Assembly: GCA_964618725.1 (NCBI GenBank)
Contig: CAZUBK010000004.1
Location: 79,485 to 143,484, forward strand
Length of the DNA stretch: 64,000 nucleotides
From: an uncultured Pseudomonadales bacterium
Lineage (GTDB): Bacteria > Patescibacteriota > Microgenomatia > UBA1400 > Chazhemtobacteraceae
Direction: 5' to 3'
Position numbers and translations under genes: made by a program. Shown piece by piece: positions 21,393 through 55,084 of this stretch. The first letter of the stretch is position 1; every line of letters begins with the position of its first letter. Below the pieces are notes generated by a model. The model did not search any database, was not told the DNA's origin, and saw only the letters and a list, made by a program, of their open reading frames with translations.

Positions 21393-22220
21393 CTAAAGTA
21401 CTAGAATCAAATAAGCCAGCCCCAGTCCTATCGCCCCAACTCCTAGTGTCAATAATACTTGTACTACCACTGCCATTTGGATCCTCGCCCCCGCCAACGG
21501 ATTCCTCCCTATTGCCTCTACTCCTGCTTTGGCTACTCGACCAAAGTATATAAATCCAACTACAAACGACACAACCACTATCACCGCTGCCGCTAAGTAA
21601 CGTAATGCGGACAACGGATCCAAAAACGGAACACTCAAACCCTCTCTTAATGTCTCAAATAGATTCTCTCCGATACTCTGTAAATTCAAACTAGGATGCA
21701 CTTTTATCGACACCTCTATTTGCCCCACTTGGTTAGGATCACCACTCTCCCATCCTTCCAGTGCCGTCCCCAAGACAAATCCGTTCTTAACCGCCTTCAC
21801 TCCGATTCCCGGCGTTGTTGAGCTAGTAACTAGATCTCCCTGAACGATTGCTCCTCTGGAAGCATTCACCCGTACCACCGCCCTTCCAGAGGTAATGACT
21901 GAAAACGAATTAGGTATGTTGGTCGCTACAATTGCCGCCGCCGGGCTCGCTACGACTACTCCAAACATCTCCACCTGAAACTCTTGGTTACACAAAACAT
22001 ACTCGTCTCCCGCGTTACAAATGACACTACCAAGTGGCACTTCCCCCTCCGTAACAGTTACCGGTATTGCTACCCCCAAGTCAATTGACTGAGCCAGGAC
22101 TTGTCCAGAAGATCCCATCATCAATAAAAACATCAAAACCAAGAAAAAGAAATTCTTCATTACTTTCAATGTAACAAATTTCTCCAATTTAGAGATATCT
22201 AAAAAAACCCTTGTATTCAC
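21393..22220 (-). CDS. hypothetical secreted/membrane protein
   Basis: N-terminal signal/TM segment. The C-terminus has a two-helix hairpin ...VAKAGVEAIGRNPLAGARIQMAVVVQVLLTLGVGAIGLGLAYLILVL. Confidence 0.5.
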   Translation of the reverse strand: MNTRVFLDISKLEKFVTLKVMKNFFFLVLMFLLMMGSSGQVLAQSIDLGVAIPVTVTEGEVPLGSVICNAGDEYVLCNQEFQVEMFGVVVASPAAAIVATNIPNSFSVITSGRAVVRVNASRGAIVQGDLVTSSTTPGIGVKAVKNGFVLGTALEGWESGDPNQVGQIEVSIKVHPSLNLQSIGENLFETLREGLSVPFLDPLSALRYLAAAVIVVVSFVVGFIYFGRVAKAGVEAIGRNPLAGARIQMAVVVQVLLTLGVGAIGLGLAYLILVL

Positions 22221-24229: not shown

Positions 24230-24353
24230 TTTCCAAAACCGAAGCCATACCCGAAACAACTGCAAATTTGTACATTCAGCCTCAAAACTGTACAACTTTC
24301 ACGCTTCTCTTTCCTAACTCCGCTTCTTTCTTCTACTTACAAATTTCGCATTT

Positions 24354-24497
24354 AAGTTCTAGATACCTGTAAACAAAAACATTACGCAGACAGAAAAAGC
24401 CGGTTTCGAAACGAAGTGAAGAATTTTTCTAGTCGAGTAAGAGACTGGCCGAGTCGCTGGACGAGGAACATGTCGTTTTTTGTGACAGGTATTTGGA
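24354..24497 (+). repeat. ~145-bp dispersed repeat, copy 1
   Basis: About 85% identical to 39584..39727. Both copies begin GTTCTAGAT and end ATATTTrGAAyA, which are imperfect terminal inverted repeats. Confidence 0.6.
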
Positions 24498-24703
24498 ATA
24501 TCAGAAGTGCGAAAGTTGCACTAGATATTTCACTTCCTCCATTCTTCCCTCCAGTGTTCGCGTCATCAATCCATTCCCACTTTTACCTGTTGACTTCACC
24601 CACAAAATCCTTCATAAATTAATACTAGATAAAGTTGTACATTTAGCCTCAAAAAATATCTAAATTTTATATACAACTTTTCTCCAAAGACAAAACTGCC
24701 CAA

Positions 24704-27700
24704 ATGTCCGCCCAAAAACATACCCAAACTAGCGAAAATCAAACTCTCACCCTTACTCAAGCGGCGCAAATCCTGGACGTCAACATGGCCACCGTCCGCC
24801 GCTGGACTAACAATGGCAAACTCCCTTCTTTCCGTACTCCCGGAGGCCATCGTCGCCTCCACCAGGCCGATGTCGAAAAAATCGCCCTCCAAAAACAGCG
24901 CCGCCAACTTCTCAAGCAACAAGCCCTGGCCGATGCCATCCAAATCCAACAACTCGCTCTTCCTAAAACCCCCCTCAAACCAATCTCAAGTCTGCTCACT
25001 GAACCCTCCCTGAAAGTCATCGACTCTGACCCCCTCAACATTCCGCAAGCCGAAGGTCCCCGTGGGATCCCGTTAGGGATAGACAACAAATCCAAGTCTT
25101 CCTTTCGTTCCTTTCTCACCCTCGCTTTGATCCTTGCTACTCTTCTTGTTTCCTTCAAGGGAGTCAAAGCCTTTAGAGACACCATTGCCTACGAAACCCT
25201 CTACAACACTCTCCCCTTCTTGTCCCGTTTTACGGGATCCCCTCTCTCTCCTCTTACTCAAAACAAAATCACAGACAAATTAAAGGGTTCCGTCCTCCAA
25301 GCCACCGATACTGTCGAGGAACTAATCTTTGAAGTCAATATCCCCACGAATATTGATAATGACCTCAATGTCAGTGGTGATCTCACCGTCGATGGAGACC
25401 TCATCACTAATGGCAATGTTGCTTTTGACAGTATCTCTGCCGATACCGCAGACTTTGGTTCTGCCGACATCACCACTCTTAGTATCGGTGGTACTACTCT
25501 TACCTCCACTGCTACGGAACTAAACTACCTCGATGGCCTGACTCTCGCCGCTGGAGGTATTGCCTACTCTACCTCTACCGGTCTTCAGATCTCCGCTGCC
25601 GGCACCAGTAGCCAGGTTCTGACCAGCAACGGTAGCGGTGCCCCCACATGGAAGAGCGTTTCCAGTATCCAATCTACCGACGCCTCAACGCTGGACAGTC
25701 TTGACTCCACCGCCTTCCTGCGTAGTAACGCCGATGATACTTACGACTCCGGTAACACCTTAACCGTCGCCGGTGCTCTCGCAGTTTCTGGTTCCCTGAC
25801 CTCCACCGGAGACGTCAGCATCTCTGACACCAATATTGCCCTCAATGGCGCCACCACCACCTTTACCACCACCGGAGACTTAACTCTTGCTGTCGGGGGG
25901 TCCGACATCCTCTCAACTTCTCGAATGACTTTGGGCTCTGCCACTGCCGGAACTGCCCAACTTCTGATCGACGGCAACGCCGATGTCATCCAACTTCAAA
26001 TCCAAGGACACTCTACCCAAACCGCAAGCACCTTCGTCATTGAACAGTCCGATGGTACGGATGTGCTTGCGGTAGGCAACACCGGGGTCCTGACGCTCAC
26101 CAACAGCGGCACCACCAACACCACCTTCAACCTCTCCAGTTCCGGAGACTTCATCATTCAGGACAACGGCACCGCCTTCATCACCTTTAACAGCAGTGGC
26201 CAGGTCGTGGGAAGCGATACCCTTCTTTTCAATCTCTCCGCTGCCACCCATAATTCCACCACTCCCGAAGGTATCATTCTCCCTCAAGCCACTTCCTTTA
26301 CCTCTCCCTCTTCCGGAGAAGGTTACATTGCCTGGGACTCTGATGACAACAAGTTGATGATGTATACAGGTAGCGCCTGGGTTGACGTCGCTGCTGCTGG
26401 AGGATCACTCTGGACTGACGGAGGAACGACCACCTACCTCACCGCTACCACCGACGATCTCGCCGTTGGCGGCACCGACTCGGAAAGCAACCTCTTCTTT
26501 GATGAGTCCGCCTCCGCCCTCTCTCTTAACCCCTATGGCACTTCTGCCGGTAATACTGGTGAATTAAGGTTTGAAGAGTTAGAAGCCAACGGTGACTCCT
26601 ACACTGGATTCAAAAGTCCCGATTCGCTAGCCGCCAATGTCGTCTACACTCTCCCTTCTGCCGACGCTACTACCAGTAACCAAGTCCTCGCCTCCTCTGC
26701 CGCCGGCGTTCTCTCTTGGATTGACGTCTCTGCTGGTGCCGGCACTCTCTGGACCGATGGAGGTACCACTACCTACGTTACCTCTACCACCGACGATATC
26801 GCTATGGGAGGAACTACCGCCGAATCCCCTTTCTGGATGGACGTCTCTGCTTCCCTTCTTAATCTCAACCCCTACGGCACTTCTACCGGCAATACCGGTG
26901 CTTTTGTCTCCCAAGAACTCGAAGCCAATGGCGACTCCTACACTGGTTTCAAAGCTCCAGACTCTTTAGCCGCTTCTGTCGTCTACGCTCTTCCCCTTGC
27001 CGATGCCTCCTCTGCCAACCAAGTCCTTTCGAGTAACGCCTCTGGTACCCTCGCCTGGATTGACGTCACTGGCGGTGCTGGTGCTCCCTGGACTACTTCC
27101 ACCACCAATACATATCTCACTACCACCACCAACGACGTCATCGTCGGTGCTTCCACCCCCGTCTCCTCTGCCAAACTTAGTGTCGATGGTGATGACGACC
27201 AGATTCAACTTGTCGTCCAAGGTAATGCCACTCAAACCGTCGCCACCCAACTCTTCCTCGTCGAGACCTCTGCCGGATCAGATCTTTTTTCCGTTGATGT
27301 CAACGGCGACTTAGTTCTCTCTGGCGAACTCGACATCAACGGTACCGGTACCCACGACATCGCAGGAACATTAAACCTCTCCGGGACAACCTTAACTGCC
27401 AGTGGCGACCTCACCATCACCCCCGTTGGTGGAGACGTCATCCTGGGATCCTCTGTGGCGCTTACCGCTTCCAAAATTAACAAAGTCATCGTCGTCGACG
27501 GCACCACCTATGCCCAGACGTGTGCCGGCATCAATGCCGCCATTGATGCGCTGGGAGCTAGTGGAGGAGAGATATACCTCCCCGAAGCTACTTACACCTG
27601 TACCGAAACGATAACGGTGGATTACAACAACACCACCATACGGGGCGCGGGGAAAGGGAGTAAAATTGTCGCGTCCGCTTGGGGTAGCTGGGGGACGCCG

Positions 27701-32128: not shown

Positions 32129-32509
32129 ATGAACACAAAAATCAAAGACTTCACCGATCTGAAATCCTGGCAAGAAGCACATAAGCTAGTTCTTGACATA
32201 TACAAGGCGACCAGGTCTTTTCCCAAAGAAGAAACTTACTCACTAACCGACCAGATCCGCCGCGCAGCCGTATCAATTAGCAGTAATATCGCTGAAGGAT
32301 TCGGCAGACAAACATACAAAGAAAAAGTCCAGTTTTACTATCTAGCCCAGGGGTCACTTGTCGAGGTCAAAAATCAACTGTTTATTGCCAAAGATGTTGG
32401 ATATCTAAACCCACAATCATTTGCCACGTTAATGAGACAGGCCAATATTGCTCACCAGCTATTGCAGGGCTTAATCACCAAATCAAAATCTTTTATTCGT
32501 AAATCATAA
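32129..32509 (+). CDS. four-helix-bundle protein (23S rRNA IVS protein / Avd-like family)
   Basis: ...SWQEAHKLVLDIYKATRSFPKEETYSLTDQIRRAAVSISSNIAEGFGRQ...YYLAQGSLVEVKNQL... is characteristic of the family. Confidence 0.8.
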   Translation: MNTKIKDFTDLKSWQEAHKLVLDIYKATRSFPKEETYSLTDQIRRAAVSISSNIAEGFGRQTYKEKVQFYYLAQGSLVEVKNQLFIAKDVGYLNPQSFATLMRQANIAHQLLQGLITKSKSFIRKS

Positions 32510-37488: not shown

Positions 37489-37710
37489 TTACAGATCAAC
37501 CAAGAAATCACTCAACGAAATCTCTGCTTGTCGCAAGATCGCCCGCAAAGTCCCAGTTCTAACAGGCCTATTATGAACAGGCACTACTGTCCTTTTTCCA
37601 TTTTTATGGGTAAACACAACATGACTTCCCTTCCCTTTTCTCGGAAGAAAGCCTCTCTTAATCAAAACTCTTTCAACATCCCTTGGTTTTATTTGTGGCA
37701 GCTTCGACAT
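37489..37710 (-). CDS. hicA: HicA-family toxin
   Basis: KPRDVERVLIKRGFLPRKGKGSHVVFTHKNGKRTVVPVH matches YcfA/HicA. Confidence 0.75.
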   Translation of the reverse strand: MSKLPQIKPRDVERVLIKRGFLPRKGKGSHVVFTHKNGKRTVVPVHNRPVRTGTLRAILRQAEISLSDFLVDL

Positions 37711-37712
37711 TT

Positions 37713-38012
37713 CTAGATTACAGCAAAGTTTCCTCCAACCCCAATCTGAGTAGAAGTAATAATGTCTCTTTCGGGTCTATCGATAGGCACAGGTCGACGA
37801 TCTTCAATCAAACTATCAACATACGTTTTTATCGCTTGCGTCACATTTTCTACTGCTTCTTCCACAGTATCTCCATCATCAGCAACTCCCAAAGTTGGAG
37901 AATAGGCATAAAAACCAGGTTTGCCAGTTCCTGTTTCTTCATCCGGTTCAACAATGATTCTGTAGTTCAAAAATGTTTTCTGCATATCCCTCATTATATA
38001 CCCTCTTGCCAA
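37713..38012 (-). CDS. hicB: HicB-family antitoxin (UPF0150)
   Basis: ...YRIIVEPDEETGTGKPGFYAYSPTLGVADDGDTVEEAVENVTQAIKTYV... It lies immediately upstream of hicA. Confidence 0.7.
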   Translation of the reverse strand: MARGYIMRDMQKTFLNYRIIVEPDEETGTGKPGFYAYSPTLGVADDGDTVEEAVENVTQAIKTYVDSLIEDRRPVPIDRPERDIITSTQIGVGGNFAVI

Positions 38013-39551
38013 TCAAAATACTCTCATTCGATACTGCAACGCTTCAGCAATATGTTCCGATTTAACAGATTCCGATGAGTTCAAATCGGCGATAGTCCGT
38101 GCTACCTTCAGAACTCTAAAATATGACCTTGCTGACAGATCATACTTCTCTACTGCCAATCTCATTAGCCTGGTGCCTTCTTCGTCAAGCACGCAGTACC
38201 TAGTGACCAATTTGTTTCTCATCTGTGAGTTTGTGTAGATTCCTGTCAAATCTTGGAATCTGTTTTCTTGAATCTTCCTGGCATTTCTAACTTTGTCTCT
38301 AATCTGGCTACTATTCTCTCTACCTTCTACATTCAACCTTCTATCGTCCGCCAACTTTTCTACCTCCACTGCCGGCACATGAACATGTAAATCAATTCGG
38401 TCCAAAATTGGCCCTGAAATTCTCCGTTTATATCTGTCAATCTCCCTAATTGTACAAACACATTCTTTCTTGGGATGATTCAAATACCCACACGGACATG
38501 GGTTCACCGCTGCTACTAACATGAAGTTCGCTGGATACTCAACCCTCCCTGCTGCCCGACTTACCACAACCTTCCCATCTTCCATTGGTTGACGAAGCGA
38601 CTCCATCACTGTCCGAGGAAACTCTGCCATCTCATCCAAAAACATCACTCCTAAGTGCGCCAGACTCACCTCTCCCGGTAAGGGTTTGCTGCCCCCTCCA
38701 ATTAATCCCGCCAAAGAGGTCGAGTGGTGTGGCGACCTGAAAGGTCTCACCCTTATTATTGCTTCACCTGCCCCCAACAGTCCCGTTGCCGAATAAATCC
38801 TTGTCACCTCCAAAGCTTCTTCGGAAGATAATGGGGGCAAAATTCCGGGCAGTGCTCTTGCCAGCATCGTTTTTCCCGATCCTGGGGGTCCACTCATCAA
38901 AATATTGTGTCCACCTGCCGCCGCGATCATACACGCTCTTTTGGCCTGTTCTTGACCCAGAATATCAGCAAAATCAAACTCAATCTCGTGATTACTAACA
39001 AGCCGCTCAATCGGAATTGTTTTTAGCACCTCAATTAACTTTTCCTCATTCAAATGTCTTACTAGGTCCGTTAAGCTAGCAACCGGTAGTACTGTCACTC
39101 CTTCAACCACCGCTGCCTCCTGAGCAGATTCCTTCGGGACGAAAACATCTCCAAAACTCTCTTTCTGTGCCAAAATTCCTACCAATAACACCCCTCGGAC
39201 GTGACGTAGATGTCCATCCAGTGACAACTCGCCATAAAAAATTGCTTTCTCATCCACCCGCTTGACTTGCTCCGATGCCAGCAAAATCCCCACCGCAATC
39301 GGCAAATCATAACAACTACCATCCTTGGCTAAATCTGCTGGCGCCAAATTCACCGTAATCTTTTTCTGTGGGAAAGAAAAATCCGAGTTGGTAATCGCCG
39401 TTCTGACCCTCTCCCTGGCTTCCTCAACCGCTTTACTCGGAAGTCCAACAATATTAAATCCCGGAAATCCTTGAGTCGCAACATCGACCTCAACTTCGAC
39501 AAGAACACTGTTAAGTCCGATATGTGCCACCGAGTTTACCTTAACAATCAT
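38013..39551 (-). CDS. YifB/ComM family Mg-chelatase-like AAA+ ATPase
   Basis: N-terminus MIVKVNSVAHIGLNSVLVEVEVD; Walker A GPPGSGKT; C-terminal helical domain. Confidence 0.9.
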   Translation of the reverse strand: MIVKVNSVAHIGLNSVLVEVEVDVATQGFPGFNIVGLPSKAVEEARERVRTAITNSDFSFPQKKITVNLAPADLAKDGSCYDLPIAVGILLASEQVKRVDEKAIFYGELSLDGHLRHVRGVLLVGILAQKESFGDVFVPKESAQEAAVVEGVTVLPVASLTDLVRHLNEEKLIEVLKTIPIERLVSNHEIEFDFADILGQEQAKRACMIAAAGGHNILMSGPPGSGKTMLARALPGILPPLSSEEALEVTRIYSATGLLGAGEAIIRVRPFRSPHHSTSLAGLIGGGSKPLPGEVSLAHLGVMFLDEMAEFPRTVMESLRQPMEDGKVVVSRAAGRVEYPANFMLVAAVNPCPCGYLNHPKKECVCTIREIDRYKRRISGPILDRIDLHVHVPAVEVEKLADDRRLNVEGRENSSQIRDKVRNARKIQENRFQDLTGIYTNSQMRNKLVTRYCVLDEEGTRLMRLAVEKYDLSARSYFRVLKVARTIADLNSSESVKSEHIAEALQYRMRVF

Positions 39552-39583
39552 GGATTGATCTTACTACGACTTTCGCGTATGGG

Positions 39584-39727
39584 TTCTAGATGTTTACAAA
39601 CAAAAACATTACGCAGATTAAGAAAAGCCGGTTCCTGAGTCAAACGAAGGATTTTTCTAATCGAGTTAGAGGCTGGCCGAGTCGCTGGACGAAGAACATG
39701 CCGTTTTTTGTAGTAAATATTTAGAAC
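39584..39727 (+). repeat. ~145-bp dispersed repeat, copy 2
   Basis: Aligns base-for-base with 24354..24497, including the shared core GGCTGGCCGAGTCGCTGGACGA...CGTTTTTTGT. Confidence 0.6.
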
Positions 39728-39739
39728 ACTGAAAAAAAC

Positions 39740-40548
39740 TTAAGTCACGTAAAACTTTCCGTCTCTTTCTGTCACTTCCCCTCTTAGTTGCAACATCGAC
39801 AACTCCACGCTTACCTCTCCGACTGATTTCTTCAATTTCATCGCCATCTCATCCATAGTTAGTGCCTCAATAGACAGTAGCTTGTAGAGCGTAGAGCGTG
39901 ATCCACCGTTTTTTCTACCCTCTACCTTCAACCTTCTAAGTTCTAGTGCTTCTAAAATGTCATTCGCGCTTGTCAGCATCTGCGCCTGCCCTTCTTTGAT
40001 TAAATTGTTTGTCCCAACACAAACCTTGGAGGTAATTGGTCCCGGCACCGCAAACAACTTCTTGCCAAATTTGAGTGCCAAATCCGCCGTAATCAAACTT
40101 CCGGATTTCTCCGCCGCCTCAATCACAATTGTTACCTTGCTCATCCTCGCTACAATCCTATTTCGCTGCGGAAACATCCATACTTGGCAGCCCCTTCATA
40201 CTCACTTATAATCAAGCCCTTTTTCTGTATTTCTGAATACAATTTTTGATCTTCAAAAGGGACCTTCCAATCAATCCCCCAGCCCAAAACAGCCACCGTC
40301 TTCCCACCACAGGAAAGCGCTATCTTATGCGCCTCTTGATCCACCCCATACATAAACCCCGAAACAATCGTTATTCCGACGTCACAAAGAGACGGAATAA
40401 TTTTTTCCAAAACCGTCTTTCCATAACTAGTCATCTTTCTACTCCCCACTACTGCCACACAATTTTCTAAATCCGCTTCCTCCAAAACCCCCTTGCGGTA
40501 AAGCTTCTTGACCTCAGGCTTAATATCCTCGAATAACCCTCCATTCAT
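39740..40548 (-). pseudogene. dprA: DprA/Smf DNA-processing protein split into two ORFs by a frameshift near 40150-40180
   Basis: The upstream ORF 40150..40548 carries the DprA Rossmann N-part. The downstream ORF 39740..40177 begins MFPQRNRIVARMSKV, the conserved DprA FPxRNRIIAGLS motif. The two frames overlap by 28 nt. Confidence 0.6.
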
Positions 40549-40628: not shown

Positions 40629-41618
40629 ATGCCCACCGATCAGGATACCAGTCCGACAACTCACATCACCGACCCTGTCATGCCCGAAGATTACTCCACC
40701 GTCAAAACGCCTACTTCACTTCCCCCTCTCCCTAATCTACCTTCTCTTGAGAGGCCTTCTTCTACACCTACATCCTCACCCCCACCTTCACCCATACCAA
40801 GCACCAGACCTTCTCTCGTCACTCCCCCTACCCCTCAACTCGTCCCGGCCTCTCTTCCCCAATCTAAATCAGCCTCTGGCATTGTCATCTTCATTCTGAG
40901 TCTTCTTGCCTTCACAGGCATTGCCGCCAGCACTTTTTTCTACACCCAAAATCGTAAACTAAATCAACAACTCTCCACTCTCGAGTCGATCGAAGCGCAA
41001 CGTACTGTCCCCGAAATCACTCCTACCCCAGAGATCACCCCCGTCTCTACCACCTCCGCCGCTCCCTCTGCCACTCCCTCTGCCTCAATGAGTGCCTTTA
41101 GCAATCTCTCCTCGATTCTTGACTTAGCCAAACAAGAAGCTGATACCGCCCAGCTCTTGATGGTTACCAGTGACAATCTTCTCGCCAGTAAACCCGTTTT
41201 TAAATACTGGTTCCGTCGTGCCCCCAGTCTCAAATCGTATTTCTTCATTCAATACGAAATGGGTTCACCCGCCCAACTCTTCTCTTCTGCTAATGTCACT
41301 CCCGACAACAACATCCCCGACCTAATTGAATATCACAATCAGAATACTCTCGGCCTGGATATCGAAGCCACTCACAAACTCGCTCTTGACCAAGTAGTTA
41401 CCGTTGCCAGCAGCGGCAAGAATCCTGTTTCCGTCAACGCCAAATATCTTCGTTCCTTCAGCAGCAATCCTTCCCTAAATACCCCGGTCAACCTCTGGCA
41501 ATTAAGCTACAAATTTGACGCCAATGCCGGAGTCCCTGACATAATCGTCCAAGTCAATGCTCAAACCTCTGAGATAGTCTTCACTAGTCTTCCCAAAGAG
41601 ATTCCTACTACTCAATGA
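40629..41618 (+). CDS. hypothetical membrane/secreted protein with Pro/Ser/Thr-rich N-terminal region
   Basis: Low-complexity P/S/T segment, then a TM helix, then a globular C-terminal domain. Confidence 0.5.
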   Translation: MPTDQDTSPTTHITDPVMPEDYSTVKTPTSLPPLPNLPSLERPSSTPTSSPPPSPIPSTRPSLVTPPTPQLVPASLPQSKSASGIVIFILSLLAFTGIAASTFFYTQNRKLNQQLSTLESIEAQRTVPEITPTPEITPVSTTSAAPSATPSASMSAFSNLSSILDLAKQEADTAQLLMVTSDNLLASKPVFKYWFRRAPSLKSYFFIQYEMGSPAQLFSSANVTPDNNIPDLIEYHNQNTLGLDIEATHKLALDQVVTVASSGKNPVSVNAKYLRSFSSNPSLNTPVNLWQLSYKFDANAGVPDIIVQVNAQTSEIVFTSLPKEIPTTQ

Positions 41619-54508: not shown

Positions 54509-54582
54509 TGGACCCGATCGGGATCGAACCGATTACCTCCACTATGCCATAGTGGCGCTCTAGCCAAGTGAGCTACGGGCCC
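54509..54582 (-). tRNA. tRNA-Ala (anticodon GGC)
   Basis: Minus strand GGGCCCG-TA-GCTC-ACTTGGCTA-GAGC...CCACT-ATGGCAT-AGTGG...ATCGG-TTCGATC-CCGAT-CGGGTCC-A. The G3·U70 alanine identity pair is present. Confidence 0.8.
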
Positions 54583-55013: not shown

Positions 55014-55084
55014 GGGCCCGTAGTTAAACGGTATACCATACCCTTCGCATGGGTAGATTCCGGGTTCGACTCCCGGCGGGTCCA
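55014..55084 (+). tRNA. tRNA-Ala-like (anticodon CGC), possibly degenerate
   Basis: GGGCCCG acceptor identical to the minus-strand tRNA-Ala, G3·U70, loop TTCGCAT, T-arm CCGGG-TTCGACT-CCCGG. The D-arm is atypical with one mismatch. Confidence 0.5.

Follow-up and report, generated by a model that had tools for sequence, protein, structure and literature searches.

Imperfect intergenic palindromes of 100-160 bp, represented by the ERIC, Correia and RPE families, form RNA hairpins when co-transcribed and may carry outward promoters. These families have many copies, usually with a TA target duplication (Correia), and their conservation is uniform or weighted to the ends. Among structured RNAs, 6S RNA is encoded by two paralogues per genome in Bacillus. 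The bubble-plus-two-arms design of 6S RNA has been described (PMC8876501). REPINs have a 5′ single-stranded tail, and compensatory changes across their hairpin are common (PMC3116915). The element reported here occurs twice in the window, i.e. the whole 64-kb stretch of DNA that was analysed. Elements of its kind, be they small structured RNAs or miniature hairpin repeats, are already known, but the element itself is undescribed and fits no described family.

A reading of the sequence alone (hereafter the sequence-only reading) had placed the second copy at 39584-39727 and regarded it as the same element as one at 24354. The relationship was confirmed by blastn (80.3% identity over 147 nt, 39565-39711 against 24338-24483, E = 4e-33; next match in the window, E = 1.6). 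The coordinates were near-exact and needed only slight correction, as the hairpins span 39583-39727 (copy 2, 145 nt, + strand) and 24356-24499 (copy 1, 144 nt, + strand). The two copies are in direct orientation, both on the + strand and 15.2 kb apart. A repeat search of the window recovered them as collinear pieces, 24395-24498 pairing with 39623-39726 (81%) and 24338-24407 with 39565-39634 (73%). In the alignment, similarity begins about 19 nt 5′ of the hairpin and ends at its 3′ foot, and the flanks beyond are unalignable. The 20-mer CTGGCCGAGTCGCTGGACGA is found at positions 24445 and 39673 only, with up to three mismatches allowed, where shuffled sequences lead one to expect none. No third copy was found in the 64-kb window or in the 9.4 kb further left, together about 73 kb of the genome; the latter sequence comes from a record (L129) that is 100% identical to positions 1-2046 of the window and extends the same genome 9.4 kb past its left end. 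The copies differ at 30 of 145 columns (26 transitions, three transversions and one indel), and this one two-sequence comparison is the basis of the covariation described below. The parts of the element are as follows.

39564-39582, + strand: conserved 5′ tail of copy 2, CTTAC..TTTCGC.T.T, outside the hairpin, starting 12 nt from the comM start codon on the other strand (alignment, blastn)
39583-39597/39713-39727, + strand: P1 of copy 2 (consensus fold)
39592-39597, + strand: variable P1 hexamer of copy 2, GTTTAC, with its partner GTAAAT at 39713-39718 (ACCTGT/ACAGGT in copy 1)
39598-39617, + strand: invariant block A of copy 2, AAACAAAAACATTACGCAGA, comprising the 5′ strands of P2 and P2b and the start of the internal loop, the same in both copies
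39600-39606/39705-39711, + strand: P2 of copy 2 (consensus fold)
39611-39615/39699-39704, + strand: P2b of copy 2 (consensus fold)
39627-39633/39671-39677, + strand: apical stem P3 of copy 2 (consensus fold)
39646-39649/39654-39657, + strand: terminal hairpin P4 of copy 2 (consensus fold)
39673-39692, + strand: invariant block CTGGCCGAGTCGCTGGACGA of copy 2, continuing into the 3′ strand of the internal loop (21 nt, 39678-39698)
24337-24355, + strand: conserved 5′ tail of copy 1 (alignment, blastn)
24356-24370/24485-24499, + strand: P1 of copy 1 (consensus fold)
24373-24379/24477-24483, + strand: P2 of copy 1 (consensus fold)
24384-24388/24471-24476, + strand: P2b of copy 1 (consensus fold)
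24399-24405/24443-24449, + strand: P3 of copy 1 (consensus fold)
24418-24421/24426-24429, + strand: P4 of copy 1 (consensus fold)

Both copies adopt a common rod-like fold on the + strand, in which 39 of 39 consensus pairs form in each copy. The 15-bp P1 is followed by a 2-nt bulge, the 7-bp P2 (ACAAAAA/UUUUUGU), a 4-nt loop and P2b, which has 5 bp and one bulged, variable base. These three stems make up an interrupted closing helix of 27 bp. The helix opens into an asymmetric internal loop with a 5′ strand of about 11 nt and a 3′ strand of 21 nt; the sequence of this loop is all but invariant. Beyond the loop stands the G+C-rich apical stem P3 of 7-8 bp (GCCGGUU/GRCUGGC), with a variable tip that ends in a 4-bp hairpin.

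Eight pairs differ from copy to copy and none is broken: four are altered on both sides (C-G to U-A twice, G-C to A-U, and U-A to C-G) and four on one side via G-U. Counted over both copies, 12 paired positions have changed and none of the 78 pairs is lost. When the 3′ partners were slid by 1-3 columns as a register control, just 44-53% of positions paired. All four double-sided changes lie within one P1 hexamer (ACCUGU/ACAGGU vs GUUUAC/GUAAAU), which also contains one of the wobble changes. The shuffle control on covariation was weak, with the observed value reached by 36 of 500 shuffles, and a doubly hit pair remains paired automatically because of the transition bias of 26:3. By a rough estimate, four doubly hit pairs together with four wobble-only single hits would arise by chance with a probability of about 1e-3. 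Of the 78 pairs on the + strand, 12 are G-U, which would be A-C on the - strand, and none is A-C; the consensus fold is therefore confined to the + strand. Folding z-scores with RNA parameters were -5.0 (+) vs -2.1 (-) for copy 1 and -2.7 (+) vs -0.4 (-) for copy 2, and with DNA parameters -3.5 (+) vs -3.1 (-) and -1.5 (+) vs +0.1 (-), respectively. The folding energy of the + strand of copy 1 was -47.6 kcal/mol. A covariance model built from the two copies scores copy 2 at 188.5 bits, by construction. A compensated fold predicted for one strand only speaks for a function in single-stranded form, RNA being the simplest case, and the evidence that this fold is selected is good but thin.

Differences between the copies are concentrated in two places, the P1 hexamer and the tip of the rod, and the internal loops are better conserved than the stems. 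Two 20-nt blocks flanking the internal loop, AAACAAAAACAUUACGCAGA and CUGGCCGAGUCGCUGGACGA, are identical; two such difference-free runs have P = 0.007 if differences are placed randomly. A protein-coding explanation was rejected: the shared + frame (FSxRVRxWPSRWTxNMxFFV) is broken by a 1-nt indel, and its changes are four non-synonymous to one synonymous.

The element also stands out by composition. The + strand of the window contains 16.8% G and 30.2% C, and GC skew ranges from -0.12 to -0.41 in every 8-kb segment, with a mean of -0.29 for 145-nt segments, regardless of gene orientation. A + strand gene encoding a TPR/Wzy_C protein (-0.40) and the - strand dprA (-0.41) are equally negative, so the skew is not a coding-strand effect. 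Gene orientation switches beside the window and the sign of the skew stays unchanged. Bacterial skews are usually far weaker than that of the window. Elsewhere, values of +0.22 were obtained for the same genome past the window (L129, reversed) and -0.26 for a relative (L148), other relatives being near 0. The intergenic DNA that flanks copy 1 is just 8-9% G on both sides. The hairpins contain 26% G (copy 1) and 23% G (copy 2), with skews of +0.23 and +0.16 that place them in the top 0.2% and 0.7% of 145-nt segments; almost all of the remaining high-skew segments lie within two large + strand genes. G exceeds C at unpaired positions of the hairpins as well. In sequence composition, the element is thus a sharp island, for which retention by selection would be the simplest cause given the 20% divergence. 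Alternatively, the G-rich composition may originate from two recent insertions from diverged donors.

Copy 2 had been placed between minus-strand comM/yifB and dprA, and copy 1 upstream of a giant surface-protein gene on the + strand. Both placements hold, the former by Pfam matches to both genes and the latter by a distance of 204 nt to the giant gene's start at 24704. The flanking features are listed below.

38013-39551, - strand: comM/yifB, Mg-chelatase-like ATPase (Pfam Mg_chelatase, 4e-94; ChlI; Mg_chelatase_C)
39740-40548, - strand: dprA, frameshifted, as two overlapping ORFs, 40150-40548 and 39740-40177 (Pfam DNA_processg_A in both halves)
24264-24296 (dyad 24268-24295), + strand: putative promoter/operator-like dyad TTGTACA-N14-TGTACAA, about 60 nt upstream of copy 1

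The dprA halves align end to end with one intact DprA of a relative (L150), and the split (40150-40177) either marks a pseudogene with a frameshift or stems from an error in the assembly. A hicA/hicB toxin-antitoxin pair (37489-38012) lies between comM and the UPF0102 gene, two genes that are adjacent in five of five relatives. The competence operon appears to be remodelled in this lineage, by the split of dprA, the loss or absence of a Y1 transposase gene found in relatives (see below) and the insertion of hicAB. By its ComM homologues, the organism belongs to the Patescibacteria, Microgenomates group, and the closest other ComM is only 74% identical. A 15-nt direct repeat, AGTYGCAACATCGAC (14/15), is present at 39474-39488 in comM and 39786-39800 in dprA, flanking copy 2 with a spacing of 312 nt; its copies are in different reading frames, and roughly 0.003 such repeats would be expected by chance. 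No gene follows copy 2 on its own strand, which rules out a cis-regulatory leader.

Copy 1 begins 126 nt past the stop codon of the TPR/Wzy_C gene and precedes the ATG of the + strand giant gene, which encodes 2460 amino acids. The N-terminal 600 amino acids of the giant protein had no homologues at E ≤ 1e-10. A 24-nt direct repeat, AAAnTTGTACATTnAGCCTCAAAA (22/24), brackets copy 1 at 24264-24287 and 24631-24654 with a spacing of 367 nt, and may be a duplicated operator-promoter. Its first copy belongs to the dyad TTGTACA-N14-TGTACAA, which is perfect; its second copy lies ahead of the giant gene, and a MerR/HTH_17 domain opens the giant protein. The TPR/Wzy_C gene (22248) and the giant gene (24704) share their first 12 nt, ATGTCCGCCCAA (MSAQ), and relatives have no TPR gene here. 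These two observations hint at an insertion of the TPR gene and copy 1 just within the 5′ end of the giant gene, by which that end was duplicated.

The dyad was not called by a scan for the sigma-70 consensus, and no sigma-70-like promoter was called adjoining either copy. The sole promoter-like call was on the - strand, at 24693-24664, downstream of copy 1. As a positive comparison for the scan, the tRNA genes of the window carry clear TATAAT/TAAAAT -10 boxes. No intrinsic terminator was called on either strand at either locus, where no G+C-rich stem is directly followed by a U-tract. Among the tRNA genes, the divergent pair 54509-54582(-) and 55014-55084(+) shares an identical 31 nt, GGCTTGCC(A/G)CGTTTTACGC-GGGCCCGTAG, made up of the opening 10 nt of the tRNA and about 21 nt of the 5′ leader before it; ahead of the + strand gene, the leader motif occurs as a tandem duplication.

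The sequence-only reading had proposed insertion into intergenic sites, and the orthologous loci of relatives bear this out. At the copy-2 site, dprA abuts comM in two distantly related Microgenomates: the gap is 3 nt in L151 (Gottesmanbacteria RBG_16_37_8) and 26 nt in L152 (Woesebacteria). Three closer relatives (L121, L122 and L120, the last being the same as L150) have a Y1_Tnp gene of 207-210 amino acids between dprA and comM. Its best NCBIfam match was NF047646, a REP-associated tyrosine transposase, at 42 bits against a cut-off of 80. In the window this junction is occupied by the element (about 165 nt), on the strand opposite to both genes, and a tblastn search of the window found no Y1_Tnp gene (best E = 0.14). 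At the copy-1 site, L148 and L150 have a homologue (26x amino acids) of the window gene 21393-22220(-) directly divergent from the giant gene, and the element is absent; in the window, the TPR/Wzy_C gene and copy 1 separate the two. Covariance models of the two copies had no match in the orthologous loci of five relatives, with filters on or off. Because the relatives' sites are empty or filled by other genes, both copies are, on this comparison, lineage-specific insertions.

The relatives with Y1_Tnp also hold 3-6 short hairpins per locus, of the form CTTCARGG-N3-8-CCYTGAAG, at the following positions.

L120: 967, 9181, 9517, 9970, 11843 and 13194
L121: 9127-11917
L122: 7611, 8087 and 9655
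L150: present as well

Many of these hairpins are intragenic, in dprA, the UPF0102 gene and the Y1 gene itself (encoding 'LQGLTLK'). None was found in the window or in the loci of the Y1-less relatives (L148, L149, L151 and L152). Together with Y1_Tnp, they resemble a patescibacterial REP-RAYT system whose REPs can lie within genes, located inside a competence operon.

Database searches assigned the element to no family. Rfam, at the gathering score and at permissive E-values, recognised only four tRNAs in the window, and no family matched the element at E ≤ 10 in 301-nt slices around either copy; sub-threshold matches (Ocean-V, two snoRNA families and RsmY, E 0.14-10) were at chance level. 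For 6S RNA (RF00013), there was no match in the 301-nt slices at E ≤ 10 or in the whole window at E ≤ 0.5. Scanning public genomes with the 18-mer GGCCGAGTCGCTGGACGA gave at least 119 matches, all in high-G+C genomes and with just 21-26 nt in common. These matches probably reflect chance in G+C-rich DNA, where the 18-mer spells LAESLDE in G+C-rich codons, and not homology. The pattern ATTACGCAG-N40-70-CGAGTCGCTGGAC had four matches in metagenomes, all in contigs of 61-63% G+C and by the pattern alone. No homologue was found by covariance-model search in IMG/VR viral contigs sharing a 17-mer with the element, or by blastn in phage and plasmid records.

The window also contains an ORF (32129-32509) for a 126-aa four-helix-bundle protein (TIGR02436/23S rRNA intervening-sequence protein, with weak similarity to Avd). 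It is bracketed by 30-nt inverted repeats (32103-32132/32532-32561, 87% complementary) and lies between two giant surface-protein genes; in the relative L148, two TIGR02436-type four-helix-bundle genes flank the LamG gene. A template/variable repeat pair of a diversity-generating retroelement (DGR), prompted by this Avd-like gene, was rejected: the copies are intergenic, and their differences are not adenine-specific, the 26 transitions being of both kinds. Three further identities were rejected. A retron would be accompanied by a reverse transcriptase, and none lies downstream; the 329-aa ORF at 40629, beyond dprA, had no Pfam match. The ends, as read from the sequence, are unlike the RYYYAAC/GTTRRRY of integron attC sites. 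Finally, the copies are not att sites of a 15-kb island, as the segment between them is syntenic in relatives that lack the repeat.

We favour, tentatively and at somewhat short of even odds, a lineage-specific element of non-coding, structured RNA, functioning as a folded transcript of the + strand and present at two loci. In such an RNA, the helices would need pairing only and their sequence would be free to vary, and the invariant loop with its flanking blocks would form a surface read by a partner, either protein or nucleic acid. Transcription of copy 1 may start at the promoter-like dyad some 60 nt 5′ of it, or copy 1 may be transcribed within the long leader of the giant gene, and the transcript would then be trimmed to its paired ends. 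We infer that the element is transcribed, that RNA and not single-stranded DNA is its active form, and that it acts in trans via the loop. The absence of a homologue from every relative's locus would be unusual for a housekeeping RNA.

RNAs that sequester proteins, such as 6S RNA, are built as a stiff rod with an open bubble. Like 6S RNA (RF00013), the element is a rod closed by a long stem with interruptions, in which its two ends pair; the large central bubble is asymmetric and the best conserved part, an apical stem stands beyond it, and the 3′ strand of the bubble can form a mini-hairpin (GUC-GCUG-GAC). However, this architecture of closing stem, bubble and apical stem is generic and not diagnostic of 6S RNA. 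The element is also shorter (145 nt vs 160-200 nt for typical 6S RNAs), does not match the 6S covariance model of Rfam, has no adjacent promoter called, and is absent from the relatives' loci, whereas 6S RNA is near-universal. Membership of the 6S family is therefore not supported, and a 6S-like mode of action, suggested by the likeness of shape, is quite unlikely. A broader proposal, an undescribed class of rod-with-bubble RNAs of a Microgenomates lineage with the two copies as its founding members, which would titrate a protein via the loop (RNA polymerase in the manner of 6S RNA, or another nucleic-acid-binding factor) and be kept by selection against a strand mutational bias among the strongest known in bacteria, is a little less doubtful, though still unlikely.

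The main rival to the RNA reading is a REPIN- or MITE-like mobile hairpin. The element would then be non-autonomous, of the REPIN/ERIC/Correia kind; its folded + strand would be handled as single-stranded DNA by a Y1 HUH enzyme (RAYT/TnpA-type) encoded elsewhere, or a transposase would bind its terminal inverted repeats. Both copies would then have been inserted from a larger and diverged family elsewhere in the genome. We consider this possible but on the unlikely side. Both copies lie at lineage-specific rearrangement points, copy 2 exactly at the site of the Y1 transposase gene of relatives, a pattern that fits mobile DNA and counts against the RNA reading. Both are inserted with respect to relatives, and their flanks are unrelated. 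The composition looks foreign and has sharp edges, as fits a recent insertion, and a whole stem hexamer is swapped on both arms, like a subfamily exchange. The terminal inverted repeat of 15 + 7 bp, the lack of target duplication and the asymmetric 5′ tail would fit 'peel-and-paste' transposition. Like REPINs (PMC3116915), the element is a long, imperfect extragenic hairpin (about 100-150 nt); its ends are conserved, compensatory changes lie inside it, its 5′ tail is asymmetric and the target is not duplicated. Three relatives carry the RAYT-like gene (42 bits, cut-off 80) at the copy-2 junction along with REP-like hairpins of their own.

Several observations stand against such a mobile hairpin. 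No RAYT was found in the window, and the relatives' REP hairpin (CTTCARGG-N-CCYTGAAG) is unrelated to the element and absent here. The arms GTTCTAGAT...AAACAAAAAC hold only a 6-nt palindrome, TCTAGA, and no self-folding REP unit. The interior is asymmetric, non-palindromic and more conserved than the stems, neither copy has a decayed pair, and just two copies, 20% diverged, are present in 73 kb. The Y1 genes of relatives leave almost no flanking room for the ends of an element.

Related kinds of mobile DNA agree with the element in part. Unlike ERIC, Correia and RPE elements, it has two copies, no duplication and conservation weighted to the loop. A DDE-type MITE would account for the terminal inverted repeats (15 bp + 7 bp, with G-T mismatches), but there is no target-site duplication (flanks TTTAA/ATCAG for copy 1 and TATGG/ACTGA for copy 2), conservation reaches 19 nt past the left repeat, and the two copies are only 80% identical, with no insertion sequence having the same ends in the window. 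Mini-elements derived from IS200/IS605 (PATEs) have separate sub-terminal hairpins in direct orientation, whereas the element is one end-to-end hairpin; CTTAC lies upstream of both copies, but 3 nt from TTTCGC in one and 6 nt in the other, which differs from insertion 3′ of a fixed tetranucleotide. The sequence-only reading raised two possibilities, a mobile or miniature element or a shared regulatory RNA. The insertion that it proposed is upheld, and the evidence speaks against a classical MITE (missing target-site duplication, two copies at 80% identity and loops better conserved than stems) and against a cis-regulatory leader. That reading had also counted it as contrary evidence if no relative carried the element and no other copies existed; this was indeed the result in the relatives' loci and in about 73 kb of the genome, and the public scans were uninformative in this respect. 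The structured-RNA and mobile-hairpin readings are not exclusive, because ERIC- and Correia-type elements are both.

It is improbable that the element is a cis-acting hairpin in long transcripts, whether as an insulator within operons, as a site of stabilisation or of processing by RNase III, or as a bidirectional terminator of an unusual sort. In such a role it would separate comM from dprA, and likewise the giant gene from the TPR gene, in their expression, and its tail might bring an outward promoter for comM. Both copies do lie between co-directional genes (TPR to giant on the + strand, dprA to comM on the - strand), and the inner part is bracketed by an A-tract and a U-tract, but the U-tract is within the stem and does not follow it. 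Translation of comM is coupled to that of the preceding gene in relatives, and thus comM would need its own signals after the insertion. Read on the - strand, the tail of copy 2 includes TAAGAT, 6 nt ahead of the ATG of comM, and in L122 TATAAT precedes the comM ATG by 5 nt; however, no terminator- or promoter-like site was called on either strand at copy 2. The copies also have the same absolute orientation in opposite operons, so that the well-folding strand is in the mRNA at copy 1 and antisense at copy 2, and the - strand of copy 2 folds no better than shuffles (z = -0.4). A neutral relic, now functionless and left by an old fragment duplication or a decayed DDE-type MITE, would fit the low copy number, the 20% divergence, and the lack of a recognisable partner gene and of homologues elsewhere, but is highly improbable in view of 0 of 78 pairs broken despite 12 changed paired positions, the invariant 20-nt blocks, the G-rich make-up retained within extremely G-poor flanks and the missing target-site duplication.

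The genomes of Patescibacteria are tiny and mostly known from metagenomes only, and to our knowledge almost nothing is known about regulatory RNAs and small mobile elements in this group. With two sequences only, the present practical value of the element is as a seed covariance model for scanning Microgenomates genomes and metatranscriptomes. Should the element instead be a transposon of hairpin type, the range of REPIN-like elements would extend to this phylum, and the RAYT-like gene and intragenic REP hairpins of relatives point in that direction. Its compensated, strand-specific fold and G-rich make-up in G-starved DNA make it a good candidate for a functional RNA of Patescibacteria, and it offers a handle for asking which protein reads it.
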